This document shows, piece after piece, positions 1,009 to 64,000 of a DNA stretch of 64,000 bases. The stretch comes from Candidatus Aenigmatarchaeota archaeon (lineage in GTDB: Archaea; Aenigmatarchaeota; Aenigmatarchaeia; CG10238-14; SCSR01), in contig JAWBWS010000003.1 in assembly GCA_038999725.1 (NCBI GenBank), positions 29,464-93,463 of the forward strand, read 5' to 3'. Each line of letters begins with the position of its first letter. Position 1 is the stretch's first letter. Made by a program: the position numbers and the translations under genes. The notes under the pieces were generated by a model. It did not search any database, was not told the DNA's origin, and saw only the letters and a program-made list of their open reading frames with translations.

Positions 1009-1121
1009 TTAATTTGATATTTCTTCTTTAAACATTAAATGTTTTTTCCAGATAGATTCTTCAAAATATTTAGAGTTTTCTATGAGTATAGAAGAGAAAA
1101 AGATTTATAAAGATTTGATTG

Positions 1122-13097: not shown

Positions 13098-13381
13098 TAG
13101 GTATAAATTGCTAATTGGTTTGCTAAAACTTCATTTTTGTAAAATGCCAAAACAATTGCTGCTAAAAAAAGTATCAGCAAAGCATAGGCTACAGGAATTC
13201 TTCCATCAAATTTGAAGAAGGTAAAAATTGGAATTAAGGCAATGAAAGACAAGAAAGTTGGCATGTCTTGAGATTTGAAAATGAAGTGGGATAAAAAAAT
13301 GGAAAAAACCACTAAAATGTAAGGAAGTTGTAATTTGGGGTCAGCCATTTTCTTTTTGATTTTTTTGGTCAAAGTGCCCAT
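13019..13381 (-). CDS. small 3-4 TM membrane protein (GtrA/DUF2304-like size class), hypothetical
   Basis: 120 aa and hydrophobic; sandwiched between two GT-C-like genes. Confidence 0.35.
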   Translation of the reverse strand: MGTLTKKIKKKMADPKLQLPYILVVFSIFLSHFIFKSQDMPTFLSFIALIPIFTFFKFDGRIPVAYALLILFLAAIVLAFYKNEVLANQLAIYTYWLLVVGVACLIIEYLREERKLKIRK

Positions 13382-36749: not shown

Positions 36750-37778
36750 TTAGGGTGTGAAGTTTATTCCCTCAACCTCTATTCTTCTATTGATTTTGTC
36801 AACTGAAAACTTGCATCCAAGTATTTTTTCACAAACAAAAATGTTTGAGATGCAATGCTGAGTTATTTCTTCTACTGTTACAAGAGATTTGCCGTGTGCT
36901 AAAGCTAAAAATGGAATTATTTGGTCTGCCATGAATTTATCCAAAGCTGCTTTAGATTGAATTGATTTCATTAAATCTTGGGCTGCAGTTCTTCCTATAT
37001 CTTCAGCTCTCACTCCTCTTTTACCCAAATTATCTACCCCAAGAATGGAGTTTTCAGTTTCAGCCCAAAGGGTTATGGAAGTACCTTGAGAATAAGTTGC
37101 AACTGAAAAATGTTGGATTTGAACATTTTCGGTTATCTTGCTTAAAACCTGTTTTGCAGCTTCAGCCTGTCTCAAAGCAACTGATTCAGGCAAGCTACCA
37201 GCTATGGAAATTCCTTTGATTGCTAAAATCTTTCCAGGATCTGTTAAGTTTACAGAGGTTAAAAGCTTGATTGGGGTAAAAGTTATTCTAACTCTTCCCC
37301 CTCCCCTGGGGTAAAAACCTTGCTTCAAAATTTCAATTTCTGGTAATGGAAGGCCAAGCTTGTTTAAAATTGGGAATGTAACAAATTTGGTGAATTCTAT
37401 TGTCGGTGATCCTAGACCGGCTGTCCCACCAATTATCTCAAGTGTGACTTTTTTGTTCGCAAAAACGAGCATTGGAGTAAGAGTCTGTAGAAGCAAAGAA
37501 ATGCTGCCAGCAGTACCTATGTCTATGGTTTTATCTTTAACGTCAAACTTTTTTGGTCTGAACTCAACCTCCATAGATCCATATTCAAGACCTGAAACTT
37601 CTGCGTCACAAAATTCAGCGGCTATTTTTATTCCTGTTAGATGTTGGGGCATCAAGCCTGGTTTTGGTCTTGTAGCACGAATGTTTATTACTCTTACTGG
37701 CTTGAGTGTTAGAGCAGATAAAGCTATTGAAGTTCTCAAAACTTGGCCCCAACCTTCTGCTCCATCAATCAAGATCAT
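36750..37778 (-). CDS. rtcA: RNA 3'-terminal phosphate cyclase RtcA
   Basis: IDGAEGWGQVLRTSIALSALTLKPVRVINIRATRPKPGLMPQHLTGIKIAAEFCDAEVSG is collinear with RtcA. Confidence 0.8.
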   Translation of the reverse strand: MILIDGAEGWGQVLRTSIALSALTLKPVRVINIRATRPKPGLMPQHLTGIKIAAEFCDAEVSGLEYGSMEVEFRPKKFDVKDKTIDIGTAGSISLLLQTLTPMLVFANKKVTLEIIGGTAGLGSPTIEFTKFVTFPILNKLGLPLPEIEILKQGFYPRGGGRVRITFTPIKLLTSVNLTDPGKILAIKGISIAGSLPESVALRQAEAAKQVLSKITENVQIQHFSVATYSQGTSITLWAETENSILGVDNLGKRGVRAEDIGRTAAQDLMKSIQSKAALDKFMADQIIPFLALAHGKSLVTVEEITQHCISNIFVCEKILGCKFSVDKINRRIEVEGINFTP

Positions 37779-48040: not shown

Positions 48041-48229
48041 TCAACCACCAAAATCTCCAAAAATCTCAACGATGTCCACAAATCCAAAGGCTTCCATTTT
48101 AACTATATGTTCAAAAACTCTTGTGTAAACTTTTTCGAAATCCTTTTCCATTTCAGCTTTCCTCAAAATTGCTCCATTCAGCTTCACCAGAATTTCATCT
48201 TCAATTTCACACAAAATTTCTTCACTCAA
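48041..48229 (-). CDS. 62-aa acidic hypothetical protein inserted between rpl5 and rps14
   Basis: Exactly fills the L5-S14 gap (overlaps L5 by 8 nt and abuts the S14 start); MSEEILCEIEDEILVKLNGAILRKAEMEKDFEKVY... Confidence 0.35.
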   Translation of the reverse strand: MSEEILCEIEDEILVKLNGAILRKAEMEKDFEKVYTRVFEHIVKMEAFGFVDIVEIFGDFGG

Positions 48230-48728
48230 TTATCTCCACCCCAAAATTGTTTTTCACCCATTCCATAGCCTCTTCTCTAGTGATTTTATGTTTTGTGGGT
48301 ATTTTTCTCTTCTGAATTCTTCTATATTTTATTCTGTAGCCACGCCTCTTTAAACTCACACAAACATCCAAACCAAACATACCAACTTCATGGGAATATT
48401 TCACTCCAGGTATGTCTATGTATTCCTTTATTCCAAAACTGAAATTTCCATCTTTATCAAACTGAGAAGATTTGAGTCTTTTTTCCACAGCATGTAGAGC
48501 CTTTTTTAAAAAATCTTCAGCTTCCTTCTTCCTTAGAGTTATCATAACCCCTACCGGCTTTCCTTTTGCAATTCCGAAAGTGCTTCTTTTCTTTGACTTT
48601 GTTATTGCAGGTTTCCTTCCAGTTAAAATTTCCAAGAGCTTCTTCGCCCTTTCAATTTTTTGAAGATCGCCAGCACATCCAATGTTGAGTGTGAGTTTAT
48701 CTATTTCAATTCTTCTCATGGGATTCAT
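48222..48728 (-). CDS. rpl5: 50S ribosomal protein L5 (uL5)
   Basis: Sequence pattern and operon position. Confidence 0.9.
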   Translation of the reverse strand: MNPMRRIEIDKLTLNIGCAGDLQKIERAKKLLEILTGRKPAITKSKKRSTFGIAKGKPVGVMITLRKKEAEDFLKKALHAVEKRLKSSQFDKDGNFSFGIKEYIDIPGVKYSHEVGMFGLDVCVSLKRRGYRIKYRRIQKRKIPTKHKITREEAMEWVKNNFGVEIIE

Positions 48729-49426
48729 TCAACCACCCTTATCACTGGGCTTTCTCTACCAACTAGAAAGAAATAGTCAAAAATGACTTCCAACATTTTA
48801 CCTTCACTTTCACATATAACTTTCCTGGGTTCAAGCGATCTCTTGACAACTATTTCCACAACTTTAGCAAGCTTTCCAGCATTTTTCCCTTTCAGTATTA
48901 GCCCTACTGCTCCCTTTTCTAGCTTGAAGTGGTCAAGAATCTTGAGAGAGGGTAATTCTACAAGGATAGAATCCCCAACCTTGTAAACATCTTCCTCCAC
49001 TAACAAATTTTTACCATCATGAAAGTTAAGTTGAGTCCTTCCTCCCTTCACAACCCTTTTATTCCTTATGTTTAAAATTTTCATGTTTGCTTCCTTTTCC
49101 GGAATTTCGATAAGCTTTAAACCCTTTTCAAAGGGGACAATTCTGTAATTTTTGTTCAACTTTGGGATTGAGATAACATCCATCAAGCCGGCAGGATAGC
49201 CTGGATCCTTTCTTGGTTTTCCATCAACCAAAATTTCCCCCATTTTAATTATCAATCTTGCCTCCCTTCCCTTCTCGACCAAACCCAAAATATCCCTCAC
49301 GATAACCAAAAGTGGAATGCATTCAAATTTCTTATGTGGCCCAGGACTTGGTGAAACTACCCAAGTAGTCAGTTTCTTCGGTACTTTCCAAAATTCTGGT
49401 GCTAAAAGTCTTTTCAACTTTCCCAT
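48725..49426 (-). CDS. rps4e: 30S ribosomal protein S4e
   Basis: 233 aa; S4e pattern; position between L24 and L5. Confidence 0.9.
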   Translation of the reverse strand: MGKLKRLLAPEFWKVPKKLTTWVVSPSPGPHKKFECIPLLVIVRDILGLVEKGREARLIIKMGEILVDGKPRKDPGYPAGLMDVISIPKLNKNYRIVPFEKGLKLIEIPEKEANMKILNIRNKRVVKGGRTQLNFHDGKNLLVEEDVYKVGDSILVELPSLKILDHFKLEKGAVGLILKGKNAGKLAKVVEIVVKRSLEPRKVICESEGKMLEVIFDYFFLVGRESPVIRVVE

Positions 49427-49430
49427 TTTC

Positions 49431-49802
49431 TCACTTCTTTATTTTTCTTTCAAGCATCTCCACCCTTTTCTTATCATCTAAATTCAAGCTTATAATCTTT
49501 AAATTTGAGGGATGAATTGGAACTTGAACTTCAGCTCCTGTTGTTTTCTTTCTCGTTACACCTTCTATATAGACTTTGTAATTTTTCAAGTCAACTTTTG
49601 AAATCTTTCCCCTTTTTCCCTTGAAAGCTCCAACCATAATTTCAACTTCATCTCCTTTTCTCACAGGTAAACTCCTTCTCTTGTATTTTTCTCTTAGCTC
49701 TTTTGACAAATGGGCTGCCATCATCTTTCTCCTTACATGTAGAGGAGCTGTAAGTAAAAACTTCCTTTGTTTCCTCGCCTTTTTGGATTTTGGTCTTTTC
49801 AT
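49431..49802 (-). CDS. rpl24: 50S ribosomal protein L24 (uL24)
   Basis: KOW motif GDEVEIMVGAFKGKRGKI. Confidence 0.85.
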   Translation of the reverse strand: MKRPKSKKARKQRKFLLTAPLHVRRKMMAAHLSKELREKYKRRSLPVRKGDEVEIMVGAFKGKRGKISKVDLKNYKVYIEGVTRKKTTGAEVQVPIHPSNLKIISLNLDDKKRVEMLERKIKK

Positions 49803-50201
49803 TCAAACCACCATGCTTGCAATTTTTCCTATTGATGAAAATCTCTCTACAGCTTCCTTTGCCACGGGCCCTTTTATTTCTGTCCCTTTTGGTTCAAAAT
49901 TCTCATCAACTATAACTGCAGCATTATCTTCAAAACTCACCCTGAGCCCAGAGGGTCTTCTGTATTCAGCCTTTTGCCTTATTATAACAGCATTAACAAC
50001 CTGTTTCCTCATCTTTACTTCACCTTTTTTAACAGAGCATTTAACAACATCACCAACACCAGCTCTCGGTTGTCTCCTTCTCACTCCCTTGTAACCAAAA
50101 ACAGAAATTATTTGCAAAACTTTAGCTCCAGTATTATCCGCACAATTCAAATAACTTCCGACATTCAAAGCTTTTGTCACACTCGCCTTAACAGCTTTCA
50201 T
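49803..50201 (-). CDS. rpl14: 50S ribosomal protein L14 (uL14)
   Basis: NCADNTGAK...IIRQK conserved pattern. Confidence 0.9.
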
Positions 50202-50578
50202 TTCCCTCTCCTCTCTACCACTTCAACCACGACAAAAGCTTTAGTCTTGCTCAAAGCTCTACACTCGGCTATTTTAACTATATCACCCTCCTTCGCATCT
50301 ATGCATTCTGGATTATAAGCAGCAATTCTCGAATGTCTTCTTTCATATCTTTCATACTTTGGAACATAGTGTAAATAATTTCTTTCTATTATTGCAGTTT
50401 TTTGTGCTTTTGTTGAAACAACTTTACCTTGAAGTATTTTTCCACGAATTTTCAAGTGACCATGAAAAGGACACTTCCTATCCTTACAAACTGATTTGGG
50501 TGGGTTAACATCTATACCAATATCCCTTGTTGTTTTTTCTTTCAATTTCTCACCTTCGGGCTTAAATTTTATTTTCAT
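50198..50578 (-). CDS. rps17: 30S ribosomal protein S17 (uS17)
   Basis: [40 protein letters not shown]. Confidence 0.85.
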
Positions 50579-50657
50579 CCAATATTTTAATCTTTTGGAT
50601 TTTGAACTTTTAATTCTTTAAAAATATAGGATAAAAGTTTATAGGATTTTGGATGAG

Positions 50658-50942
50658 TCACCATCTCATAAACTTCTTTTTAATCCTATCTTCAGGTCTT
50701 GCCACCAAGATTTTACCTTCTACTTCAACTTTTTCACCAGAAGGTAAAGTGAAAATGAAAACAGAGTTTGCCTTCGGTATTATTTTTTCTCTCCCTTCTT
50801 CCGTTTCTATCTTGAAGGTTTTATAGGTTTCATCTATGATTTTACCTTTCAAACCTTTTTGTGTGGGGTCGGTAGATTTAGCTATTTTAACCTCTAAACC
50901 AATTAGCTCATGTCTAACCAAGTTTTTTGGTGTTATTGGCAT
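50658..50942 (-). CDS. rnp1: RNase P protein component 1 (Rpp29/Pop4)
   Basis: LIGLEVKIAKSTDPTQKGLKGKIIDETYKTFKIETEEG is Rpp29-like; canonical position between L29/SUI1 and S17. Confidence 0.7.
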   Translation of the reverse strand: MPITPKNLVRHELIGLEVKIAKSTDPTQKGLKGKIIDETYKTFKIETEEGREKIIPKANSVFIFTLPSGEKVEVEGKILVARPEDRIKKKFMRW

Positions 50943-50962
50943 AAGATAAATTTTAATTGAAT

Positions 50963-51298
50963 TTAACTTATCTCTATCTGTTCAGCTTGATAGCCAAGTT
51001 TGATGAGCAAGTCTTTAAGTTTGTTCCTGTGGTCACCTTGAAGTTCTATGTGGTTGTTTTTAAAAGTTCCTCCACAAGCCAATTTTGATTTTAAATGAGA
51101 AGCAATTTCTTTAGCATTTTCCTTTATACCCTCAATTATTGTTATTGGTTTGCCAAACTTCCTCTTTTCTATGTAAATCTTTATCTTCTCTTCTTCCCTT
51201 TCTAAAGCTCTGCAAGTACAAAGCTCTGTAGGTAAACCACACTTTGAACAAATTCCAAGAGATGCAGGAGCTCCACAAGTTGGGCAAACCTCTGTCAT
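50963..51298 (-). CDS. translation initiation factor SUI1 (aSUI1/eIF1) with N-terminal zinc finger
   Basis: CPTCG...CSKCG N-terminus; SUI1 core KIKIYIEKRKFGKPITIIEGI...LKSKLACGGTFKNNHIELQGDHRNKLKDLLIKLGY. Confidence 0.8.
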   Translation of the reverse strand: MTEVCPTCGAPASLGICSKCGLPTELCTCRALEREEEKIKIYIEKRKFGKPITIIEGIKENAKEIASHLKSKLACGGTFKNNHIELQGDHRNKLKDLLIKLGYQAEQIEIS

Positions 51299-51300
51299 CT

Positions 51301-51540
51301 CTACTTCTTTCCCTCTCTTCTTTCTTTTTTTATTGTAAGGATTCTAGCAATGGTCTTTCTTATTTGTCTTATTCTTCCAGGATTTTTTATAGGCCTCCCC
51401 AATTTTATGTTTCCCCGTTCTTTAAGAAGTTCTAATTTTAGTTCAGAAAGCTTTTTATCCAATTCTTCTTCTTTGAGTTCTCTCAGCTGTTTAATCGCCT
51501 TCAACAACCTTTTCCTCCTTTCTTTCTTTTTCTTTTTCAA
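51301..51540 (-). CDS. rpl29: 50S ribosomal protein L29 (uL29)
   Basis: LRELKEEELDKKLSELKLELLKERGN. Confidence 0.8.
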   Translation of the reverse strand: MKKKKKERRKRLLKAIKQLRELKEEELDKKLSELKLELLKERGNIKLGRPIKNPGRIRQIRKTIARILTIKKERREGKK

Positions 51541-52153
51541 CTATAAATTCTTTTTCTTCCCCACCTTTCTCAAATACAAATTCCTTTGGCATCTTTTTCA
51601 TTATCTTCACTTCTATCCCAACTATTCCAGGTTTAATTTTGGCCTGTGCATAGCTAGTTTCAACAAGTGTTTCAGCATAATCACCAGAAAAAGCCACAAA
51701 CCCTTTTTTAAATTTCTGAAATCTTGATCTTTCTTTACCAGCAAGCTTTCCTCCAATCTTAATTTGAACTCCTATAGCACCGGCCTTCATCACCTCATCT
51801 AAATAGTAATTTGCAACTTTCTTGTAGTTTATTCCCCTTTCAATTGCATTCGCAACCCTTCTTGCAACTATGTGCGCATCCAGGAAAGGATTTGCAACTT
51901 CCTTTACATCGATAAGCGGATTTTCAAAATTAAACTTCTTTTTTATTTCTTCAGTTATCTCTTCAACTTTCTTTCCAGACCTTCCAACCACAAGACCAGG
52001 TTTATGAGCAAAAATTATGAGCCTTGTTCCCAAGGGTGTTCTCTGGATTTCTGTATGACTGTACCCAGCCTTCTCAAATTTCTTTGCCAAATAAGCTTCA
52101 ACCTCGGATTCTTTTATTCCTTCCTTAACAAAAATCTTCTCGGTTGCCATCAT
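51491..52153 (-). CDS. rps3: 30S ribosomal protein S3 (uS3)
   Basis: KH domain plus the S3 C-terminal domain; the annotated overlap with L29 suggests an alternative L29 start. Confidence 0.9.
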   Translation of the reverse strand: MMATEKIFVKEGIKESEVEAYLAKKFEKAGYSHTEIQRTPLGTRLIIFAHKPGLVVGRSGKKVEEITEEIKKKFNFENPLIDVKEVANPFLDAHIVARRVANAIERGINYKKVANYYLDEVMKAGAIGVQIKIGGKLAGKERSRFQKFKKGFVAFSGDYAETLVETSYAQAKIKPGIVGIEVKIMKKMPKEFVFEKGGEEKEFIVEKEKERKEEKVVEGD

Positions 52154-52560
52154 CTTTCCTCCAGCTCTACAGTTAAATTAACGGCTTTCCTCCTTTGCCT
52201 TCGAAGATGCCATAAACTTCTCGGCCTGTAGAATCTTAAGCCTTTATCTGCTTTTATTTCTTTGAGAAAAAGCCTACCAGGATTCAACCCCTTTTGTCTT
52301 GCGTTGGCTTCAGCTGTTTTCAGGAGTTCCAAGAACTTGTTTGCGGCTTTTGTGTAGTACTTTCCTTTTATGTTTATTTTCTTGGAGAGCAAATCTTCCA
52401 AAAATTTTTTTGCTTTCTCAAGTTTTTTTCTTTTCAAACTTTTACAAAGGACTAGAGAGTGCTTCAAAGAGATTCTTGCATTTGAGATTTTTGCTGTTGC
52501 TGTTTTCATGTTATCACTATGTTGGCTTGGCCGCATAGAACTTGCTTCCTCTGGTAGCAC
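52150..52560 (-). CDS. rpl22: 50S ribosomal protein L22 (uL22); probable start at the internal Met (MKTATAK)
   Basis: KYYTKAANKFLELLKTAEANARQKGLNPGRLFLKEIKADKG. Confidence 0.85.
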   Translation of the reverse strand: MLPEEASSMRPSQHSDNMKTATAKISNARISLKHSLVLCKSLKRKKLEKAKKFLEDLLSKKINIKGKYYTKAANKFLELLKTAEANARQKGLNPGRLFLKEIKADKGLRFYRPRSLWHLRRQRRKAVNLTVELEER

Positions 52561-52954
52561 CTATTCCTGGGGCAGAATGCTTCACCCTTTTTATTGGAAT
52601 GGAAAATTCACCAAGTCTGTGACCAACCATTTCTGGAGTGATGTAAACACTCACCCACTCTTTACCATTGTAAACACCAAGCTTGGCACCAATCATCTGA
52701 GGCAAAATTATCATATCCCTCAGATGGGTCTTGTGGAAACCATCTGGATTTTTCTTTATTTCTTCCAAAAGCTTTTTTTGATTTTCTTGCAAACCCCTTT
52801 TAAGGGTTCTTCTTTCTTTTGCAGTTAGCAACTTGGCAAATTCTTCTATACTCATCTGTTTGAGTTCTTCTAAAGTTTTGCCCCTGAAAGTGAAAACCTT
52901 TGCCATCCTAACCACCCTTTTTCCTTCCCATCCTCTTTGGACTGATTGAACCAA
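52517..52954 (-). CDS. rps19: 30S ribosomal protein S19 (uS19)
   Basis: GVYNGKEWVSVYITPEMVGHRLGEFS. Confidence 0.9.
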   Translation of the reverse strand: MVQSVQRGWEGKRVVRMAKVFTFRGKTLEELKQMSIEEFAKLLTAKERRTLKRGLQENQKKLLEEIKKNPDGFHKTHLRDMIILPQMIGAKLGVYNGKEWVSVYITPEMVGHRLGEFSIPIKRVKHSAPGIGATRGSKFYAAKPT

Positions 52955-53612
52955 CCTTTGCTCCTGGTGGTGTTGAACGCTTCACAGCTTTTGAAGGTCT
53001 CGGCCTCTTACTCTTCCCACCATAAGGATGATCTGTTGGAGTCATGGCAACTCCCGCAGTTCTTGGGTAAAGTTTACCTCTTGCCATCATAGCATGCAAC
53101 TTCTTACCAGCTTTAATCCAAGGCTTCTCAACCCTCCCACTCCCTGCAGGCACGCCAATGGTTGCTCTGCATTCACCAGGTAGTTCAACAATCTTTCCAG
53201 ATGGGAATTGAATTTTAACCTTACCTCCAACTTTACCAATAACAAGTGCAAAAGTCCCACTAGCTCTACAAAGCTTTGGTCCAGATCCGGGATAAGTTTC
53301 CACACAAAAAATTTTTGTTCCTTCAGGAATTTGAGATAGGGGTAAAACATTTCCAACCAAAGGCTCGCCACCATAGGTTATAACATCGCCTGCTTTCAAA
53401 CCTTCTGGTGCCACATGCAGCACTTCTTTTCCATCTTCAAATTTTACTATTGCCACGGGGGCACTTCTCCCAGGGTCATGAACTATATCTTCAACTTTAC
53501 CACTTATTCCCATAATAGGCAAATACTCAACTCTACCTAAATACCTGTGGCTTGGTGCTCTATACCTTGGACCACCTTTTCCTCTAGCTCTTGGAATTAT
53601 TCTTTTCCCCAT
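52908..53612 (-). CDS. rpl2: 50S ribosomal protein L2 (uL2)
   Basis: AMTPTDHPYGGKSKRPRPSKAVKRSTPPGAKVG is the L2 C-terminal signature. Confidence 0.9.
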   Translation of the reverse strand: MGKRIIPRARGKGGPRYRAPSHRYLGRVEYLPIMGISGKVEDIVHDPGRSAPVAIVKFEDGKEVLHVAPEGLKAGDVITYGGEPLVGNVLPLSQIPEGTKIFCVETYPGSGPKLCRASGTFALVIGKVGGKVKIQFPSGKIVELPGECRATIGVPAGSGRVEKPWIKAGKKLHAMMARGKLYPRTAGVAMTPTDHPYGGKSKRPRPSKAVKRSTPPGAKVGSISPKRMGRKKGG

Positions 53613-53701
53613 TTCGACACCGGTATTAATTAATTATGATTTGAATAAAATGAATTTTTAATATTTTTAAAGATTTGTGCCAACTGAAATTAAAAACAAG
53701 A

Positions 53702-53962
53702 TTAAACAATTCCAAGTTTTGTTGCCACATCCCTAGCCTTAAATTCTGGTTTAAGTTTGATGTAGGCCTTTTTCTCACCTTTGAAAGTTATTTCTGTGTT
53801 CACCTTTTCAACTTTCACCTCAAACAATTTCTCGAAGGCTTCTTTTATTTGTTTTTTATTCGCTTTCCTATCAACAATAAAAACTATTTTATTCTCCTTA
53901 TCAATCATTCCCACAGACTTTTCTGTTGTATAAGGATACTTCAAAATCTTGTAAGGATCCAT
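53702..53962 (-). CDS. rpl23: 50S ribosomal protein L23 (uL23)
   Basis: YPYTTEKSVGMIDKENKIVFIVDRKANKKQIKEAFEKLFEVKV. Confidence 0.85.
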   Translation of the reverse strand: MDPYKILKYPYTTEKSVGMIDKENKIVFIVDRKANKKQIKEAFEKLFEVKVEKVNTEITFKGEKKAYIKLKPEFKARDVATKLGIV

Positions 53963-54742
53963 CTACCTTTCCCCCAATTTTTCTATTGCAGATTTTGACC
54001 AGATTGTGAGCCTTCCAGGCACACCACCAGGAGCAAGGATTTCTACATTCAAATTTTGAACCAAACAAACATCCAGTCTCAAGTTCTTTGCAGCCTTGGT
54101 TATACCTTTGTCCTCACTCACGATTATAAGAGGACCAACCTTTTTCTTATATCTTTTACCTTTTATCTTCTTTTCTTTTATTCTCTTCAATTCTTCTTCA
54201 AGCCCGACTTCCTTCAAGAATTTCAGCAATTCTTTACTTTTCTTTACTTCTTGAATTTTATCTTCAACAACTAAAGGCAACTCTTTTAATTTCTCAATCT
54301 TGTGTCCTCTTTTCAGAACAATTTCTTTCATCGCAGTTGCTGCTATAGCAGATTTTATCGCCTTCTTCCTCTCCTTTTCATTTATTTTTTGTTCCCAAAT
54401 CTTCTCAACTTTTGGTGGGTGTGCTTCTCTTCCTTTAACAGCTTGAGGCACAAATCTAGCTCTAAACATTTGTTGCAAAGGAATTTTCCCATGTAAGCGA
54501 GGCATTCTTGCCATTTCTCTTGACATCATCGTCCAGCGATGTCTTCTGTACCCATGGTAATGAGCAGATGTTCTTTTTCCAGCCATGACATCAGTACCAT
54601 AAGCTTGACGCTTGTTGGCTTGTATGGCTAAGAAAGCTCTTCTTATCAAATCTTCTCTCAAAGGCTCTTGAAAAACTTTTGGCAACTCCACTTCACCCAC
54701 CATTTTTCCTTGTAAGTCAAACAAGCCAGCTTTCATTTCCAA
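53963..54742 (-). CDS. rpl4: 50S ribosomal protein L4 (uL4)
   Basis: Size and pattern; position between L3 and L23. Confidence 0.85.
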   Translation of the reverse strand: MEMKAGLFDLQGKMVGEVELPKVFQEPLREDLIRRAFLAIQANKRQAYGTDVMAGKRTSAHYHGYRRHRWTMMSREMARMPRLHGKIPLQQMFRARFVPQAVKGREAHPPKVEKIWEQKINEKERKKAIKSAIAATAMKEIVLKRGHKIEKLKELPLVVEDKIQEVKKSKELLKFLKEVGLEEELKRIKEKKIKGKRYKKKVGPLIIVSEDKGITKAAKNLRLDVCLVQNLNVEILAPGGVPGRLTIWSKSAIEKLGER

Positions 54743-55714
54743 TCACTTCAATATTTCTTTTATTTCTGGTATAAGAAATCTTGCTTTTGGAGGCCTTATT
54801 CCTGCTCTCAATCTTATGAGCCTCTTATTTGGTCCAGGGACGGAGCCTTCCAAGAGCAAGTAATTGCTCTTGATAACACCATAATTTTTAAAACCGCCTT
54901 TAGGGTTGACTTCTTCTCCATTTTCACCAATCTTCAAAATCCTTTTATTGAATTCTGTTCTTGTTTGAAAACCGAGCTGGCCAGCCATTGGGACTGTATA
55001 CCTAACTTTTCCAGGCTGTTCTTGACCCAAAGTTCCAACATGTCTTCTCTTTTCTTTCGCATGTCTAGATTGGATAAAAACACCAAACCTTTTAACAGGG
55101 CCAGCAGTTCCTTTTCCTTTAGTTACTGCTATAACATCAACATACTCACCTTGTCTAAAAACATCAGAAACTTTTAACTCCTTTCCTAAAATTTGCTTGG
55201 CAAACTCAAATTTTTCTCTAATTTCTTTACCACCAACTTCAATTTCAAAAACTTCAGGCTTTTTCTTACCAAGACCGGAAGTTTTGGGTTGGGTGGCAAC
55301 AATAAGTCTAATCTTGGAAATCTTATCTAAGTTTTTTTCTATTTCATTGAGATTTTCTTCATTTGGCCTAACTTTGGTTTTTCTCTCTATTTCTTTTGGC
55401 AAATTTTTCATCCAAGCTTCTGTCAACACTTGAAGGCCCTTTCTTGTGAGTTTGTAAGCTCTTATTCCAACTACTTTTAAAGGCGGACATTCCAACACAG
55501 TTGCTGGGACTGCAATTTCTTGACCAAAGGTGGGAGAACTTTTAACATTGTCTATCAAAATCACGGTAGTCATCCCAGCCTTATAACCAGCAAAATCTAA
55601 GAGCTTTGGTTTTTCTGTTTCCGGATAGGTAGAAACAGTTGGATAAATCCTCTTAGCTCTCTTCCTAGGATAAAATTGAAGCGAGCCTTTTCTTGGTCTT
55701 TTTACAGCCGGCAT
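54743..55714 (-). CDS. rpl3: 50S ribosomal protein L3 (uL3)
   Basis: FAGYKAGMTTV...GKGTAGPVKRFGV... Confidence 0.9.
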   Translation of the reverse strand: MPAVKRPRKGSLQFYPRKRAKRIYPTVSTYPETEKPKLLDFAGYKAGMTTVILIDNVKSSPTFGQEIAVPATVLECPPLKVVGIRAYKLTRKGLQVLTEAWMKNLPKEIERKTKVRPNEENLNEIEKNLDKISKIRLIVATQPKTSGLGKKKPEVFEIEVGGKEIREKFEFAKQILGKELKVSDVFRQGEYVDVIAVTKGKGTAGPVKRFGVFIQSRHAKEKRRHVGTLGQEQPGKVRYTVPMAGQLGFQTRTEFNKRILKIGENGEEVNPKGGFKNYGVIKSNYLLLEGSVPGPNKRLIRLRAGIRPPKARFLIPEIKEILK

Positions 55715-56298: not shown

Positions 56299-56385
56299 TT
56301 TCAAATCGAAGCAGAAGCTAAATATAAATCATTTTCAAAACACATTTGGCGTCAATTTCATTTGAAACATGAAGACAATAAATAA

Positions 56386-56393
56386 TTTAAAAA
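56386..56393 (+). promoter_or_regulatory. TATA-box-like element (tttaaaaa) about 22 nt upstream of tRNA-Gly
   Basis: Centred about -22 relative to the tRNA 5' end, close to but short of the typical archaeal promoter position (-26/-27). Confidence 0.3.
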
Positions 56394-56410
56394 GCATTTT
56401 GAATATTAAT

Positions 56411-56500
56411 GCGCCAGTGGTCCAGCCTGGTCTAAGACCCGAGCCTTCCAAGCTCGAGACGGGGGTTCAAAAGGTAAACCTGAAATTCCCCCCTGGCGCA
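56411..56500 (+). tRNA. tRNA-Gly (anticodon UCC) with a putative ~15-nt non-canonical intron in the T-loop
   Basis: Acceptor GCGCCAG/CTGGCGC, D-loop with GG, anticodon stem CGAGC/GCTCG with loop CTTCCAA, T-stem GGGGG/CCCCC. The T-loop region is 22 nt (TTCAAA-aggtaaacctgaaat-T) instead of 7. Confidence 0.55.
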
Positions 56501-56510
56501 TGTTTTTGTT
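56501..56510 (+). terminator. T-rich tract (tgtttttgtt) immediately 3' of tRNA-Gly
   Basis: An oligo-T archaeal termination signal. Confidence 0.3.
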
Positions 56511-57325: not shown

Positions 57326-57712
57326 TTGAACAAAGACAATTTGGCGGACGCTTTAGTGGCAATAAAGAATGCTGAGAGGGTTGGGAAAAAGGAATGTGTT
57401 ATACCTGCCTCTAAACTTATAAAAGCTGTTTTGAACATTTTGCGGGAAAAGAATTACATAGGCTCTTTTGAGTTCATAGATGATGGGAAATCAGGGAAAT
57501 TCAGGGTAGAGCTCAAAGGTAAAATAATAGATTGTAACGCAATTAAACCAAGATTTTCTGTAAGGGTAGACGAGTTTGAAAAATTTGAGAAAAGATTTTT
57601 ACCTGCGAGAGACATGGGCATGTTGATAGTCTCAACTCCAAAAGGAGTAGTTGACCACAAAAAGGCAAAAGAGATGAGGAGTGGTGGAAAACTTCTGGCT
57701 TATTGCTATTAG
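57326..57712 (+). CDS. rps8: 30S ribosomal protein S8 (uS8)
   Basis: [60 protein letters not shown]. Confidence 0.9.
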
Positions 57713-58242
57713 TGATTTTTATGATTTCGGTTGAGGTGAAAATCCCGGAAAACGTGAAAGTTGAAGTTGAAGGGTCGAAAGTGAAAGTTTCTGGGGAGAA
57801 AGGAGAGCTTGAAAGAAGTTTCCCTGAGAAAGGAATAAGAATTGAATTGGTTGAGGGGAAAATAGTTGTTTCTTCAGAATCGGATAGAAAGCGCTTCAGG
57901 GCTTTGGTTGGGACAATCTCCGCTCACATAAGGAATATGATAGAAGGGGTTACAAAAGGCTTCACTTACAAGCTCAGAGTTGTTTATTCTCATTTTCCAA
58001 TAACAGTTAAAGTTGAGGGTGAAAAAGTTTTAATTCACAATTTTTTGGGTGAGCGTGTACCAAGAGTTGCAAAAATTGTTGGTAAAACTCAAGTTAAAGT
58101 GGAAGGTCAAGAAATTACAGTCTCGGGAATAAATTTGGAGGAGGTTGGCCAAACCGCAGCCAACATAGAGCAAGCTACAAGAATCGTGGGTTATGATAGA
58201 AGAAGGTTTATGGATGGTATTTTTTTAGTGAGTCGTGAATAA
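57703..58242 (+). CDS. rpl6: 50S ribosomal protein L6 (uL6)
   Basis: Two-domain L6 pattern; follows S8. Confidence 0.9.
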
Positions 58243-58334
58243 AATCTTCATCAAAATGTGTTTATGAGCCAGTTATAAGCGAAAGGGACTAATTTAATTT
58301 AATTTTTAACTCTAATTTTTTACTTAGTGATGGA

Positions 58335-58790
58335 TTGAGGGCAAGGTTCCCTACAGTTGACATAATAATTGAAAAAGGTAGTAAGATTGTTTTGATTAAG
58401 AGAAAGAAAGAACCTTTTAAAGACAAGTGGGTCTTACCTGGTGGCCATGTTGAAGAAAATGAAACTGTAGAAGAGGCTGCAATTAGGGAAGCTAAAGAAG
58501 AAACTTCTCTTGATGTTAAGCTAAAGGGAATTCTTGGTGTTTATTCTGATCCTAAGAGAGACCCGAGATATCTGACCATCTCAACTGTTTTTATAGTTAA
58601 GCCATTGAGTAAAAAAATTAAAGCTGGCTCTGATGCTGCAAAAGTGGAGTGGATTGATGTGAGGAAAATTGATTGGAATAATCTTGGTTTTGATCACTTA
58701 AAAATTTTAAAGGATTACTTAAAATATAAGTATAGGAAAGGGACTTATTGGTCTAAAAAGTGGGATCATGAACCCAAGAAAAAAACCTGA
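58335..58790 (+). CDS. NUDIX hydrolase
   Basis: Nudix box GGHVEENETVEEAAIREAKEETSL. Confidence 0.75.
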   Translation: MRARFPTVDIIIEKGSKIVLIKRKKEPFKDKWVLPGGHVEENETVEEAAIREAKEETSLDVKLKGILGVYSDPKRDPRYLTISTVFIVKPLSKKIKAGSDAAKVEWIDVRKIDWNNLGFDHLKILKDYLKYKYRKGTYWSKKWDHEPKKKT

Positions 58791-59106
58791 ATTCAAGAGA
58801 TGGATGAGTGAAAGTTTGAAAAGGCTTAAGCCAAGCTGGAGAAGACCAAGAGGAATGCACAGCAAGATAAGGATAAGAAAAAAAGGAAAGCCCAAGATGC
58901 CAAGCATTGGCTATGGTGCACCAAAAAGTTTAAGATTTCTCCATCCTTCAGGCTTTCAAGAGGTTTTGGTTTCAAACTTGAAAGATTTGGAAAAAGTTAA
59001 TCCTAGCAAGCAAGCCATAAGAATTGCTCATACGGTTGGGAGGAAAAAAAGACAAGAAATCCTGAAGAAGGCTGAAGAGCTGAAGATAAAAGTTTTGAAT
59101 CCCTAA
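58768..59106 (+). CDS. rpl32e: 50S ribosomal protein L32e
   Basis: KRLKPSWRRPRGMHSKIRIRKKGKPKMPSIGYGAPKSLRFLHPSGF. Confidence 0.85.
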   Translation: MNPRKKPEFKRWMSESLKRLKPSWRRPRGMHSKIRIRKKGKPKMPSIGYGAPKSLRFLHPSGFQEVLVSNLKDLEKVNPSKQAIRIAHTVGRKKRQEILKKAEELKIKVLNP

Positions 59107-59292
59107 TTTTTTCTTTTGAATCATAAAGAATAGATAAGGCCAGGATTGCTTTAAAGTGATTATTTAAAAATAACTTTTTAAACAACTTACAATTTCAAAT
59201 TGTTTGATTCCCATGGAAATATTGGAAATTTACTTCCCAAAAAAAGGATACAAGAAGACACTAAATTTTCTTTGAAGAAGAATTGAAAAGGA

Positions 59293-60375
59293 ATGAGAAA
59301 AATGATGAGAAGTGGAGTAGCAGAATTACCTCTTCACTGGGGGAAAGCTCCTAAATGGCTCTTTAATAGGATGGTCAAGCTAGGTAGAACCATTAGTGAA
59401 GTAGTTATCCTTGAATATGGAAGGGATGAATTTTTAAGAAGAATTTCAGACCCATTTTGGTTTCAAGCTTTGGGTTGTGTGATGGGTTGGGATTGGCACA
59501 GCTCAGGCCTGACCACAACTGTCACAGGAGCTTTAAAAGAAGCCAACTTGAAAGAATTTGGAATTGCTGTTCTTGGTGGAAAAGGCAAAGCCAGCAGGAA
59601 AACTCCTTCTGAGATTGAAGTTGTGGGAGAGGAATTTTCTCTCAGTGATAAAAAAATTGAAGAATTGAAGAAAGCTAGCAAGTTGGTTGCAAAAGTTGAT
59701 AATGTTGCCTTACAAGATGGTTTCCAGCTTTACCATCATGCTTTTCTTGTGACTGAAGAAGGAAAATGGGCAGTGATTCAACAAGGCATGAATCCTGAGA
59801 GCAGATATGCAAGGCGTTACCATTGGCTTTCAGAAAAAGTTAAATCTTTTGTTAGTGAGCCTCATTTAGCAATTTGTTGTGACATTAAAACCCAAGCTCT
59901 AAATATGGTTGCCAAAGAGAGTGAAGAAGCCAGAAAATGCTCTGTAGATTTAGTTAAAGATAATCCCATACATTTGAGAAAATACCTTGTCCCAAACAGA
60001 GAGCAAAAGACGATATTCAAATATTTACAAATGCCCCTAAAGCATGAGATTGAACTCAACAACTACAAAGCTTTACAAGAAGCTTTTGAACAGCAGCCAA
60101 AAGATTATGAGGAACTCTTACAAATCAAAGGAATCGGGCCGAAGACTGTGAGAGCTTTGGCTTTGATAAGTAGTTTGATTTTTGGAGCAGAATTAAGTTG
60201 GCGCGATCCTGTTAAATATTCTTTTGCGCATGGGGGTAAAGATGGGCATCCTTACCCTCTAGACAGAAAGACTTACGATGAATCTATTCAATTGCTTCAA
60301 AATGCTATTCAACAAGCAAAACTTAACCAAATGGAGAAAATTGAAGCGATAAAAAGATTAAATGTTTTTTATTGA
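59293..60375 (+). CDS. conserved archaeal hypothetical protein (DUF763-like) with C-terminal helix-hairpin-helix motif
   Basis: N-terminal LPLHWGKAPKWLFNRM; HhH IKGIGPKTVRALALISSLIFG. Confidence 0.4.
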   Translation: MRKMMRSGVAELPLHWGKAPKWLFNRMVKLGRTISEVVILEYGRDEFLRRISDPFWFQALGCVMGWDWHSSGLTTTVTGALKEANLKEFGIAVLGGKGKASRKTPSEIEVVGEEFSLSDKKIEELKKASKLVAKVDNVALQDGFQLYHHAFLVTEEGKWAVIQQGMNPESRYARRYHWLSEKVKSFVSEPHLAICCDIKTQALNMVAKESEEARKCSVDLVKDNPIHLRKYLVPNREQKTIFKYLQMPLKHEIELNNYKALQEAFEQQPKDYEELLQIKGIGPKTVRALALISSLIFGAELSWRDPVKYSFAHGGKDGHPYPLDRKTYDESIQLLQNAIQQAKLNQMEKIEAIKRLNVFY

Positions 60376-60546
60376 AATTTTTGAAATATCTTGGTAAAAC
60401 ACATTCAGCTCCCATTTCTTCATACACAATGGAAGAACCACCGATGACTTTCATAAGTTGGTTTAAGATTAAAGAATAAAAATTTAACTTTTCAAAAGAA
60501 GGCTTAAAATAATTTAATTATTCAGCTCACTAATATAGTTGTATAG

Positions 60547-60981
60547 TTGGTAGATGACATGTCAAACTTGCAGAAAAAGCTTGCAGCCCAGATATTGAAA
60601 GTTGGTGAGAGTAGAGTATGGTTAGACCCGAGTAAGCAGAAAGAGATAGAGGCTGCCATAACAAAAGCCGATGTCAGAAAGCTGATACAAAAAGGCTACA
60701 TCAAAGCCTTGCCAGAAAAAATTCACAAACCAAAAGAAGAAGGAAGGAAGAAAAGGGGACCTGGAAGCAGGAAAGGAGCTAGTGGAGCGATAATGCCGAG
60801 AAAAAGGAGGTGGATCTCAACTGTAAGACCCTTGAGAGAAATGCTTAAAGAGTTGAGAGATGAAGGTAAGATTGATAGAGCAACTTATCATATGCTTTAC
60901 AAGTTGGTAAAGGGAGGAATGTTCAGGAGCAGAAGCCACCTGAAAATTTATTTAGAGCAGCATGATTTGATAAAAAGGTGA
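60547..60981 (+). CDS. rpl19e: 50S ribosomal protein L19e
   Basis: LQKKLAAQILKVGESRVWLDP... Confidence 0.85.
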   Translation: MVDDMSNLQKKLAAQILKVGESRVWLDPSKQKEIEAAITKADVRKLIQKGYIKALPEKIHKPKEEGRKKRGPGSRKGASGAIMPRKRRWISTVRPLREMLKELRDEGKIDRATYHMLYKLVKGGMFRSRSHLKIYLEQHDLIKR

Positions 60982-60985
60982 TGCT

Positions 60986-61501
60986 GTGAAACTTAGCCCA
61001 ACCTACAAAATGCCTTTTAAGAGGAGAAGGCTTGGCAAAACTGATTACAGAAGAAGGTTAAAGCTTCTGTTGAGTAAAAAACCAAGGCTTGTTGTGAGGA
61101 GAAGCTTGAAATACATACTTGCTCAAATAGTTGAATTCTCCCCAAAGGGGGATAAAACTTTGGTATCAGCAAGCTCAAAGGAACTGAAAAAACTTGGATG
61201 GAACTTTGCTTGCGATAATTTACCAGCAGCCTATTTAACAGGCTTGTTGATAGGTAAGAGGTCCTTGGCAAAGGGAATAAAAAATGCTGTTTTAGATTCT
61301 GGTCTTTATTCTTCAACAAAAGGCAACAGAATTTTTGCTGTTGTGAAAGGGGCGAGAGACGCTGGTCTTGAAGTTCCTGTTAGTGAAGAGGTTCTCCCAA
61401 GTGAAGAAAGGATAAAGGGTTTGCATATAGCAAGCTATTTGGAGAGATTCAAATCCATGCCAGAAAAATTTGAAGAGATAAAAAATAAGATTGGTGGTTG
61501 A
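60986..61501 (+). CDS. rpl18: 50S ribosomal protein L18 (uL18)
   Basis: FKRRRLGKTDYRRRLKLLLSKKPRLVVRRSLKYILAQIVEF. Confidence 0.85.
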   Translation: MKLSPTYKMPFKRRRLGKTDYRRRLKLLLSKKPRLVVRRSLKYILAQIVEFSPKGDKTLVSASSKELKKLGWNFACDNLPAAYLTGLLIGKRSLAKGIKNAVLDSGLYSSTKGNRIFAVVKGARDAGLEVPVSEEVLPSEERIKGLHIASYLERFKSMPEKFEEIKNKIGG

Positions 61502-62278
61502 ATGGCAGAAGAGGAGAAGAATGAAGAAATAGTGAAAGAGGAAGAGGCACCGAAAGAAGAGGAGAGAAAGATAGAAAAAATACCAACAGAAGAGGAAGTT
61601 CCTACAGGAGAAGAAGTTAAGCTTGTTGTACCAACTCCCCTTGAAAAATGGGTACCAAGAACAAGCTTAGGAAAAGAAGTTTTTGAGGGCAAGATCACAA
61701 ATATAGAAGAAATTTTTAAGGCGGGCAAGATTATAAGAGAACCAGAAATTATAGATAAACTTCTACCCAATCTTAAGAGTGAGATAATCTTGATAGGCAG
61801 GAGGACAGGAAAGGGAGGGGGAGCTCAAAGAATCCCTATCAGGATAACAGCAACGATGCATAAATCTGGAAGAAGGTTTAAGGCTTCTGCTTTTTCTGTT
61901 GTCGGGAATGAAGATGGTATTGTTGGTGTGGGAAAGGGGGCGGCACCAGAACCCAGAGATGCAATAGCAAAGGCTATTCAGAGAGCCAAACTGAATTTAA
62001 TAAAAATTAAGCGTGGATGTGGAAGTTGGGAATGTGGTTGTGGAGAAGAGCATTCTATCCCCTTCAAAGTTGAGGGGAAAAGTGGTTCTGTTAGAGTTGT
62101 GCTCATGCCTGCACCAAAGGGTGTTGGTATTGTTGCCGATGATGAATCCAAAAAGATTTTAAGGCTTGCTGGTATAAAGGATGTGTGGGTTAAGACTTTT
62201 GGGAATACAAGCATGAGAATAAATCTTATAACTGCAATTTACAATGCCCTTAAGAATCTTTACATCTACGAGAGGTGA
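61502..62278 (+). CDS. rps5: 30S ribosomal protein S5 (uS5) with acidic N-terminal extension
   Basis: RIPIRITATMHKSGRRFKASAFSVVGNEDGIVGVGKGAAPEPRDAIAKAIQRAK. Confidence 0.9.
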   Translation: MAEEEKNEEIVKEEEAPKEEERKIEKIPTEEEVPTGEEVKLVVPTPLEKWVPRTSLGKEVFEGKITNIEEIFKAGKIIREPEIIDKLLPNLKSEIILIGRRTGKGGGAQRIPIRITATMHKSGRRFKASAFSVVGNEDGIVGVGKGAAPEPRDAIAKAIQRAKLNLIKIKRGCGSWECGCGEEHSIPFKVEGKSGSVRVVLMPAPKGVGIVADDESKKILRLAGIKDVWVKTFGNTSMRINLITAIYNALKNLYIYER

Positions 62279-62739
62279 AGCAAGTGTTTGCTGTCATCAG
62301 GATAAGGGGGGAGGCAGGATTGAGAAAAGAGGTTAGAGATACTTTGCAAATGCTTCGTTTAAAAGCTCCAAACAATTGTGTTCTCATACCAGAAACAGAA
62401 AGTTATAAGGGTATGTTGCAAAAGTGCAAAGACGTGTGCACGTGGGGAGAAATAGAAAAGAGTACTTTAATAAAACTCTTGCAGAAAAGGTTGAGAGCAG
62501 AAGGGGATAAAAGGGTTGATGAAAAGCTGCTTAAAGAAATCACAAACTTCAACTCTTTTGAGGAATTTGCTGATGCTTTGCTTTCAGGTAGAGTAAAATT
62601 GAAAGATTTCAAGCTTAAACCTGTCTTCAGGCTTACACCACCTAGCAAAGGCTTCAAGTCTGTGAAAGATGCTTGGCCAAAGGGTGATTTAGGCTATAGG
62701 GGGAAAGAAATAAATGAGTTGATAGAGAGGATGATTTGA
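62275..62739 (+). CDS. rpl30: 50S ribosomal protein L30 (uL30)
   Basis: FAVIRIRGEAGLRKEVRDTLQMLRL. Confidence 0.85.
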   Translation: MKQVFAVIRIRGEAGLRKEVRDTLQMLRLKAPNNCVLIPETESYKGMLQKCKDVCTWGEIEKSTLIKLLQKRLRAEGDKRVDEKLLKEITNFNSFEEFADALLSGRVKLKDFKLKPVFRLTPPSKGFKSVKDAWPKGDLGYRGKEINELIERMI

Positions 62740-63149
62740 ACATGAATTGGATTGTTTTATCTTTACTAGCTTTGGTTTTGTATGGAGTCTGGGGATTTTT
62801 CATAAAACTTTCTACACTCCATCTTAATTGGAAACAATGTATAATAATTTCCTCCTTGGGAATACTTACCATCAACATTCTAATTTACTCCTTCTATAGA
62901 CCAGAAATAAATTGGAGGTTGAGAGGCTCAAAATATGCTTTAGTTGCTGGTATCATTGTTGCCATTTCTTCAATTTTCTTTTTCCTAGCTATAGAATCAG
63001 GAAAAGCTTCTATTGTAATAGCTTTAACTGGGCTTTATCCAATCGTGACACTAGTTCTTGCATATTTATTTTTACATGAGCAACTCTCACTAGTTCAAAC
63101 CATTGGAATTATTTTAGCTCTGATAGCTATAGTTTTAATGTCTGTGTGA
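62736..63149 (+). CDS. small 4-TM EamA/DMT-superfamily membrane protein
   Basis: 137 aa with four hydrophobic helices and an EamA-like half-transporter pattern. Confidence 0.55.
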   Translation: MNMNWIVLSLLALVLYGVWGFFIKLSTLHLNWKQCIIISSLGILTINILIYSFYRPEINWRLRGSKYALVAGIIVAISSIFFFLAIESGKASIVIALTGLYPIVTLVLAYLFLHEQLSLVQTIGIILALIAIVLMSV

Positions 63150-63154
63150 TTTGA

Positions 63155-63571
63155 ATGGTTGTAAGAAAAGAGAAGAAGCATAGGAAATTTAGAGGAAGAA
63201 GAACTTATCATGGTAGCCATAAGAAAGCAAGAGGAGGAGGCTCGAGAGGGGGAAGAGGTAAGGCAGGCATGCACAAGCACAAGTGGAGTTATACTGTGAA
63301 ATATGAGCCAGATCATTTTGGGAAAATTGGATTTAAGCCTGTAAAGAGAAGAGAAGTGAAGGTAATAAACTTAGAAGAATTGGATAAAATTGCAAGAGAA
63401 AAAAATTTGGAAAAAATCAATGTGGTAGAACTTGGATTTGAAAAGGTCTTGGGTAAAGGTAAACTCTCAAAGCCGCTAACAGTAGAAGCAATAGAATTCT
63501 CGAAAAAAGCTGTGAAAAAAATAGAGGAAGTTGGAGGGAAAGTTGTTAAATTGGAAAGTGAAGGAAAATGA
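63155..63571 (+). CDS. rpl15: 50S ribosomal protein L15 (uL15)
   Basis: Gly/Arg-rich N-terminus RGGGSRGGRGKAGMHKHKW. Confidence 0.85.
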   Translation: MVVRKEKKHRKFRGRRTYHGSHKKARGGGSRGGRGKAGMHKHKWSYTVKYEPDHFGKIGFKPVKRREVKVINLEELDKIAREKNLEKINVVELGFEKVLGKGKLSKPLTVEAIEFSKKAVKKIEEVGGKVVKLESEGK

Positions 63572-64000
63572 ATGAAGAAAAACAGGATTTGGAAAAAAAG
63601 ATAGCAAGATTTTTGCCAAGCGTGAAAAGACCAACCTATCAACTTCCCTTCAACACAAAACTGAAATGGACTGCTCTTGCTTTGCTCATGTACTTAACTT
63701 TATCTTACATCACAATCTATGGTGTTGAAAAAGCTTCTTATGAGCACTTTAGGTTTTATGAGATTGTTTTGGGTTCTAAATTTGGAAGTGTGATGACTTT
63801 AGGTATAGGACCAATAGTCACAGGTGGAATAATCTTACAACTTTTGGTTGGAGCCAAAATCATAAATTGGGACATGACGAAAGAAGAAGGAAGAAGTAAA
63901 TTTCAGACATGGAGCAAATTCTTAGCTTTGGTCTTCTGTGTGGTTGAGGCAGTCGGATTGGTAATAGCAGGGGCTTTGCCAATAACAGGTGGGTTTTTAA
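63568..64000 (+). CDS. secY: preprotein translocase SecY (Sec61 alpha), 3'-partial (runs off window)
   Basis: Hand translation MNEEKQDLEKKIARFLPSVKRPTYQLPFNTKLKWTALALLMYLTLSYITIYGVE...LGIGPIVTGGIILQLLVGAKII; ATG overlaps the L15 stop. Confidence 0.85.
   Translation, partial: MNEEKQDLEKKIARFLPSVKRPTYQLPFNTKLKWTALALLMYLTLSYITIYGVEKASYEHFRFYEIVLGSKFGSVMTLGIGPIVTGGIILQLLVGAKIINWDMTKEEGRSKFQTWSKFLALVFCVVEAVGLVIAGALPITGGFL

Follow-up and report, generated by a model that had tools for sequence, protein, structure and literature searches.

The tRNA-Gly(UCC) locus and its surroundings

The tRNA-Gly(UCC) locus occupies positions 56411..56500 (plus strand, 90 nt unspliced) of the window, by which we mean the whole 64-kb stretch of DNA that was analysed, with a GC content of 35%. 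Read arm by arm, the locus has the layout GCGCCAG-TG-GTCC-AGCCTGGTCTA-AGAC-C-CGAGC-CTTCCAA-GCTCG-AGAC-GGGGG-TTCAAAAGGTAAACCTGAAATT-CCCCC-CTGGCGC-A. Its acceptor stem (GCGCCAG/CTGGCGC, 7 bp) is followed by the discriminator A56500 with no encoded CCA at the 3' end, the D-arm (GTCC...GAC) contains three Watson-Crick pairs and a C13/A22 mismatch common to all orthologues, the anticodon arm (CGAGC-CTTCCAA-GCTCG) presents the anticodon TCC at 56447..56449 and the variable loop is 4 nt long. With all arms found and their stems intact, the cloverleaf outside the T-arm is standard, as the initial annotation had described it. The T-stem, formed by GGGGG (56461..56465) and CCCCC (56488..56492), encloses a loop of 22 nt rather than the usual 7, and here the earlier description proved exact to the base. 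Excision of the 15 nt at 56472..56486 (plus strand, AGGTAAACCTGAAAT) yields a 75-nt tRNA-Gly with the 7-nt T-loop TTCAAAT, which is also the T-loop of the window's tRNA-Ser(GGA) at 1121..1205, so that this part of the earlier proposal stands as well. We treat the excised segment as a putative bulge-helix-bulge (BHB) intron at tRNA position 59/60. The 5' exon (56411..56471, plus strand) then comprises the 5' strand of the acceptor stem, the D-arm, the anticodon arm, the variable loop, the 5' strand of the T-stem and T-loop nucleotides 54-59 (TTCAAA), and the 3' exon (56487..56500, plus strand) comprises T60, the T-stem 3' strand CCCCC, the acceptor 3' strand CTGGCGC and the discriminator A; the 59-60 junction after splicing is predicted to read ...GGGGGUUCAAA|UCCCCCC.... 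The exons are colinear and contiguous, separated by the 15 nt, and a split or permuted tRNA gene was ruled out, both exons being at one locus in normal order.

Upstream of the gene, by 16-33 nt, lies the AT-rich stretch AATAAATAATTTAAAAA (56378..56395, plus strand), a possible candidate for an archaeal TATA box as judged by its letters, and the tRNA-Gly(UCC) copies of relatives carry a conserved TTTAAAATA about 28-35 nt upstream. The oligo-T tract TTTTTGTT (56503..56510, plus strand), found 3 nt past the discriminator and likewise read from the letters only, is likely to be a transcription stop of the archaeal type.

A protein search with ribosomal protein L3 identified metagenome-assembled genomes (MAGs) of Candidatus Aenigmatarchaeota as the closest relatives of the host, the best five showing 80-85% identity and belonging to one series with DRTY/JZ isolate labels, which we take to denote hot-spring samples. 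In NCBI, the HIT protein encoded in the window is likewise assigned to an Aenigmatarchaeota MAG. The tRNA-Gly(UCC) gene is positioned between two halves of the archaeal ribosomal-protein cluster and has genes of the HIT and radical-SAM families as neighbours. The halves are divergent, one encoding L3-L4-L23-L2-S19-L22-S3... (48222..55714, minus strand) and the other S8-L6-L32e-L19e-L18... (57326..64000, plus strand), with the HIT gene, the tRNA gene and the radical-SAM gene filling the gap. Genes for a NUDIX protein (58335..58790) and a DUF763 protein (59293..60375) are inserted in the plus-strand half. Two related loci (L081 and L084) share the split arrangement and have additional HAD-hydrolase and PcrB genes between the HIT and radical-SAM genes, which are absent in the window.

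Elsewhere in the window, a 200-aa open reading frame (3573..4175, plus strand) matched only the N-terminal SAM-like domain of phage-type integrases and, lying about 2.4 kb from the tRNA-Ser(GGA) gene, may be an integrase remnant. Two very large minus-strand reading frames with N-terminal hydrophobic segments (4200..8978, 1592 aa; 13369..17379, 1336 aa) adjoin a block of reading frames at about 17.4-25.5 kb that look glycosyltransferase- or nucleotidyltransferase-like by eye, and together they probably represent a cell-surface or envelope locus. A replication-gene neighbourhood (PCNA, GINS51, primase large subunit) includes genes for a TIP49/RuvB-like AAA+ ATPase (26381..27760, minus strand, E 9e-135) and for Endonuclease dU (PF01949; 31109..31771, minus strand, E 1e-60).

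Geometry of the predicted splicing motif

In the native window, ARAGORN called the tRNA-Ser(GGA) at 1121..1205 only and made no call at the unspliced tRNA-Gly locus, and Rfam, both at the gathering threshold and at E<=1, likewise reported tRNA-Ser(GGA) only and missed tRNA-Gly(UCC). Once spliced in silico, the sequence was called by ARAGORN as tRNA-Gly(tcc) of 75 nt. In a permissive local Rfam scan, the best match of the unspliced locus within the clan was tRNA-Sec (RF01852) at 17.7 bits, with a 17-nt insertion in the T-loop. We rejected this assignment: the score compares with a threshold of 47 bits, the anticodon is UCC and not UCA, the variable loop has 4 nt and the acceptor stem 7 bp.

The T-loop (nucleotides 54-60) is the exact structural counterpart of the anticodon loop (32-38), and position 59/60 corresponds to the canonical intron position 37/38. 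From this equivalence a specific BHB geometry is predicted for a T-loop intron, in which the stem serves as helix h, loop nucleotides 1-4 are paired with the intron tetranucleotide located immediately before the two 3'-terminal intron nucleotides, and each 3-nt bulge is cut behind its second nucleotide. The locus contains such an hBHBh' motif with 3-4-3 geometry at 56461..56492 (plus strand). Helix h is the T-stem GGGGG/CCCCC (56461-65/56488-92, 5 bp), the central helix H is UUCA/UGAA (56466-69/56481-84) and pairs T-loop nucleotides 54-57 with the 3' part of the intron, the bulges are AA|A (56470-72) and AU|U (56485-87), and h' consists of GG/CC (56473-74/56479-80, 2 bp) closed by the loop UAAA. 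Two 3-nt bulges on opposite strands around a 4-bp helix, the arrangement that defines a BHB, are therefore present as UUCA/UGAA, AA|A and AU|U, and this geometry sets both predicted cuts exactly at 59/60, that is, at the ends of 56472..56486. In the crystal structure of ARMAN-2 EndA with RNA, A13-U14-A15 form the bulge, with A15 contributing the scissile phosphate, so that the cut follows the second bulge nucleotide (PMC12397907).

Folding the pre-tRNA to look for a BHB at both junctions, a check proposed at the outset, thus returned a 3-4-3 motif with the cuts at the coordinates first suggested, and two details of the proposal need adjustment. A BHB-type motif does lie at 59/60, but it is a full 3-4-3 hBHBh' and not clearly a relaxed one; with h of 5 bp and h' of only 2 bp it has the strict form bordering on hBH, and the short h' brings the 5' site close to the relaxed hBH/BHL form. 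The GGT/ACC complementarity within the insert, which had been put forward as the helix, contributes the small outer hairpin h' only, whereas the splice sites are set by the pairing of UUCA (56466..56469) with UGAA (56481..56484).

The BHB fold has an energy of -10.0 kcal/mol, compared with -12.3 kcal/mol for the minimum free energy structure (MFE), and therefore lies 2.3 kcal/mol above the free-RNA minimum. In the MFE alternative, A56472 pairs with U56481, the T-stem is kept and an internal AGG/CCU hairpin is formed. In the free-RNA ensemble the pairs of H have a probability of about 6% and those of h' of at least 0.98. According to these folding models, it is plausible that EndA would need to pick out pre-tRNA-Gly in the BHB conformation or to stabilise that conformation.

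Excisions of 13 or 15 nt at 56-58 also gave sequences callable by ARAGORN. These were rejected because flanking helices are absent (h=0, h'=0) and the resulting T-loops occur in no orthologue; 56472..56486 is the only excision that combines flanking helices (h=5, h'=2) with the orthologue-type T-loop TTCAAAT. Random 15-mers placed at the site show the required BHB geometry in 0.04% of cases with Watson-Crick pairs only and in 0.19% with G-U pairs allowed, and a chance origin of this geometry in a 15-nt insert is excluded. We further scanned the whole 64-kb window by enumerating and excising each geometric BHB and asking ARAGORN for a new tRNA. The scan yielded tRNA-Gly(UCC) as the sole new tRNA, together with one artefact on the known tRNA-Ser, and no further hidden intron-bearing tRNA in the window. 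In 1.16 Mb of related loci, the same approach found one clean match, the orthologue at locus L001, the remaining matches being artefacts with "5' exons" of 4-9 nt. A metagenome scan for close relatives with any insert in the T-loop, its pattern verified on the window and L001, gave no match. In the data searched, the intron sequence did not recur beyond chance matches with at most two mismatches and, as it does not recur, there is no evidence of intron transposition.

Orthologues and alternative explanations

The window gene sits where relatives have their single tRNA-Gly(UCC), which allows a comparison of syntenic copies. In L001 (JAVZGQ01), an independently assembled MAG from a different sample whose L3 is 85% identical, the 59/60 intron measures 16 nt; the difference is one extra A in the apical loop, and H, the bulges and h' are unchanged. 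Over its 61 nt, the 5' exon matches that of the L001 orthologue at every position (100% identity), and its identity to the intron-less orthologues is 89-98%. The uninterrupted syntenic gene was found at eleven loci from about ten genomes (L032, L003-L005, L008, L010, L015, L023, L081 and L082/L083), where the T-loop TTCAAAT is that of the predicted spliced product; the copy in L032 scores 62.1 bits on the Rfam tRNA model (RF00005). Other relatives have introns at other positions of the same gene, namely a 20-nt intron at 45/46 in L084 (3607..3701, plus strand; H = CUUG/CAAG, h' 5 bp), a 12-nt intron at 37/38 in L087 (1320..1406, plus strand; H = CUUC/GAGG) and two introns in L016 (around 2405, minus strand), one of 13 nt in the D-loop just 5' of G18 and one of 11 nt at 37/38. 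The L084 gene is wrongly called by ARAGORN, which reports a tRNA of 96 nt having a long variable arm. The states seen within the Aenigmatarchaeota clade are thus none, 59/60, 45/46, 37/38 and D-loop plus 37/38. One geometry rule resolves all of these intron variants and gives a near-identical mature tRNA of 75-76 nt each time, which validates the rule internally. As this particular 59/60 intron is confined to two genomes, separated by a single indel, compensatory covariation is absent within the lineage.

In a neighbour-joining tree of L3, the window pairs with L001 as its sister and L084 branches off next, the other members of that clade being intron-less and L016 standing separate. The simplest reading of this distribution would be several recent, independent intron gains, including a single acquisition of the 59/60 intron in the common ancestor of the window genome and L001. 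More tentatively, and at somewhat less than even confidence, the syntenic tRNA-Gly(UCC) genes of genomes with L3 66-85% identical may represent, as a natural time series, the gain of BHB mini-introns in progress, alongside a phylum-wide epsilon-type EndA. If true and undescribed, this would offer a compact system for testing the de novo origin of non-canonical tRNA introns.

Several properties of the locus could also be expected of a tRNA-Gly(UCC) pseudogene that fell out of use when 15 nt were inserted into its T-loop: the locus is not accepted by standard tRNA finders, its unspliced Rfam score is far below the threshold and the BHB is not the minimum-energy fold. A disused gene would however have to have kept its four stems and all conserved positions, as well as a 5' exon without a single difference from that of L001 at an L3 identity of only 85%, while its insert preserved H, the bulges and h'. 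Furthermore, a random insert has the BHB geometry in fewer than 0.2% of cases, and the gene occupies the syntenic position of the relatives' single tRNA-Gly(UCC). We consider inactivation very improbable. Retention of the 22-nt T-loop in the mature RNA, as an unspliced tRNA or a tRNA-like RNA with an expanded T-arm, is in keeping with the free-RNA minimum, which keeps the T-stem and places an AGG/CCU hairpin inside it, but with so large a loop the elbow contacts T54-A58 and G18/G19-psi55/C56, conserved by the remainder of the molecule, would be lost. The insert moreover has precisely the make-up needed for a BHB intron at 59/60, the relatives have a normal 7-nt T-loop, and the tRNA-Sec match reaches only 17.7 bits against a cut-off of 47, with the anticodon UCC instead of UCA; a retained loop appears even less probable than a pseudogene.

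Errors of sequencing or assembly, or a trace left by a mobile element within a normal tRNA gene, deserve consideration since the source is a metagenome-assembled genome and since a reading-frame fragment with an integrase N-terminal domain is present elsewhere in the window (3573..4175). An artefact is contradicted by the presence of this insert, one base different, in the independently assembled L001 MAG, and a mobile element by the length of 15 nt, which is too short, and by the intron not being repeated elsewhere beyond chance near-matches. Of the three explanations, we give this one the least credence, and even taken together they carry only a small share of the probability. An examination for the outcomes named in advance as contrary to an intron, namely the lack of a valid BHB, pseudogene status or a more favourable fold without an intron, found none of them. 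The initial proposal of a non-canonical archaeal intron at 59/60 spanning 56472..56486 gains support from the BHB geometry, its retention in L001, the intron-less orthologues with the predicted T-loop and the archaeal host. Judged by its sequence, the locus is very probably a functional tRNA-Gly(UCC) gene with one 15-nt protein-spliced BHB intron at position 59/60.

Splicing enzymes, proposed pathway and known introns

A Pfam scan of 20 open reading frames and a tblastn seed search revealed neither EndA nor RtcB in the 64-kb window. The window encodes RtcA, the RNA 3'-terminal phosphate cyclase (36750..37778, minus strand; Pfam RTC and RTC_insert, E 3e-73), whose product is 2',3'-cyclic phosphate ends, as used in RtcB-type ligation. 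As a tblastn seed for EndA we used an M. jannaschii sequence, which served as a lead only, and matches were verified against Pfam and PDB. The search led to EndA genes of 397 aa in L064 (13095..14288, plus strand) and L047 (12777..13970, plus strand), and to an EndA match in L024 (60..431), also from Aenigmatarchaeota. Both tRNA_int_endo Pfam domains were recognised in the L064 protein, whose residues 7-397 align with residues 4-387 of PDB 4FZ2 (E 7e-84), the three-unit epsilon2 EndA of ARMAN-2. The L064 enzyme retains the equivalents of the catalytic Y236/H251/K282 and of the ASL residues Y160 and K161, and this catalytic triad together with ASL Y160-K161 confers broad substrate specificity on EndA (PMC6379350; PMC12397907). 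At the sequence level, the features of an epsilon2 enzyme are therefore present: a single polypeptide of about 390 aa, alphaN-alpha-betaC units, the triad and the ASL Y-K. A database search returned 1310 homologues, and many of those with 380-440 aa are labelled Aenigmatarchaeota. By this homology, Aenigmatarchaeota are predicted to encode a three-unit epsilon-type EndA related to that of ARMAN-2. The enzyme was seen in more distant members of the phylum, with L3 about 53% identical to that of the window, and by analogy the window's own organism would be expected to have it too. Reviews of 2018-2019 list epsilon-type EndA for Micrarchaeota only (ARMAN-1/2, Mancarchaeum); provided that the pattern is confirmed and has not been described before, this type would extend to a second DPANN phylum.

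In the pathway that we propose, U54-A57 of the T-loop would pair in the precursor with the UGAA close to the intron's 3' end to form the 4-bp central helix, flanked by the T-stem and the GG/CC mini-hairpin and leaving the two 3-nt bulges AA|A and AU|U. EndA, predicted to be of the epsilon type in the phylum, would bind this motif and cut after the second nucleotide of each bulge, releasing the 15-mer and leaving 2',3'-cyclic phosphate and 5'-OH ends, and a ligase of the RtcB type would join the exon ends. The 7-nt T-loop UUCAAAU and the elbow between the D-loop and the T-loop would form only after splicing. From the sequence we infer splicing in vivo, ligation by RtcB and an order of events in which splicing precedes T-loop modification and elbow formation.

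The nearest described counterparts are the tRNA-Cys(GCA) and tRNA-Pro(GGG) genes of ARMAN-2 (Ca. Micrarchaeum acidiphilum), likewise T-loop 59/60 introns in a DPANN host whose lineage encodes a three-unit epsilon-type EndA. ARMAN-2 pre-tRNA-Cys has a 13-nt hBH intron at 59/60 that is cleaved in vitro by epsilon2 EndA (Fujishima et al. 2011, PMC3239211), and pre-tRNA-Pro a strict hBHBh' intron at the same site, these positions overlapping major insertion sites of other archaea (PMC3239211). The present case shares with tRNA-Cys the mini-intron size (15 nt against 13 nt) and differs from ARMAN-2 in phylum (Aenigmatarchaeota) and in tRNA (Gly-UCC); moreover, the tRNA-Cys intron is a relaxed hBH, whereas that of the window has both bulges and a 2-bp h', and the ARMAN-2 intron was cleaved in vitro, whereas the one described here is known from its sequence. 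For Thermoproteales and other TACK archaea, passages in PMC4033280 and PMC3239211 describe short BHB introns at numerous sites, the T-loop among them (Sugahara et al. 2008, as cited there), as apparently recent, lineage-specific gains linked to a broad-specificity EndA. The window intron resembles these in being a short BHB intron at a non-canonical position, here T-loop 59/60, and the hosts differ in that theirs have an (alpha-beta)2 EndA with a Crenarchaea-specific loop while the phylum of the window has the epsilon type.

The canonical 37/38 intron is built in the same way, with the stem as h, the first four loop nucleotides in H and cuts after loop nucleotide 6 and before nucleotide 7, and mini-introns of that kind are found in the same gene of L087 and L016. 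The window intron, in contrast, is in the T-loop and invisible to standard tRNA finders, and because of this location it masks the T-loop and the elbow rather than the anticodon.

A second metagenome scan found about 15 further archaeal tRNA-Gly(UCC) genes that are recognised as tRNAs only once a 59/60 BHB intron of 16-41 nt has been excised (L096, L106, L110, L118, L124, L142, L150, L153, L170, L172, L173, L181, L185, L186 and L210), so that the class is common. They agree with the window gene in tRNA identity, insertion point, H (UUCR/YGAA) and an h of 5 bp and differ from it in intron length, in a mostly longer h', in unrelated intron sequences and in their tRNA bodies, and they represent independent acquisitions or distant lineages. 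Introns at 59/60 are thus already documented and common in metagenomic tRNA-Gly(UCC), and the window case adds one instance and no new mechanism. In the library searched, we found no paper on tRNA introns or on the EndA type specifically in Aenigmarchaeota.

The tRNA-Gly(UCC) species reads GGA and GGG codons. As ARAGORN and default Rfam/Infernal miss the gene, an Aenigmatarchaeota genome annotated in this way would appear to be without tRNA-Gly(UCC). Gaps in the predicted tRNA sets of DPANN genomes were noted to point to disrupted genes that escaped detection (Kaneta et al. 2018, PMC5829648). The value of the case lies in annotation and in providing a small, tidy example of recurrent mini-intron gain, unsurprising to a specialist. 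Non-canonical introns are seen as tolerated where endonuclease specificity is broad, and four intron configurations in one orthologous gene, together with a phylum-wide epsilon-type EndA, support recent and recurrent non-canonical gains. Among the metagenomic genes, a GC-rich archaeal tRNA-Gly(UCC) family (L106, L118, L142, L150, L159, L181, L186 and L210) with 59/60 introns of 23-31 nt varies in h' by compensatory changes (for example, CGGTGGACC/GGTCCGCCG vs CCCGGGACC/GGTCCCGGG), with H (UUCG/CGAA) and the bulges fixed.
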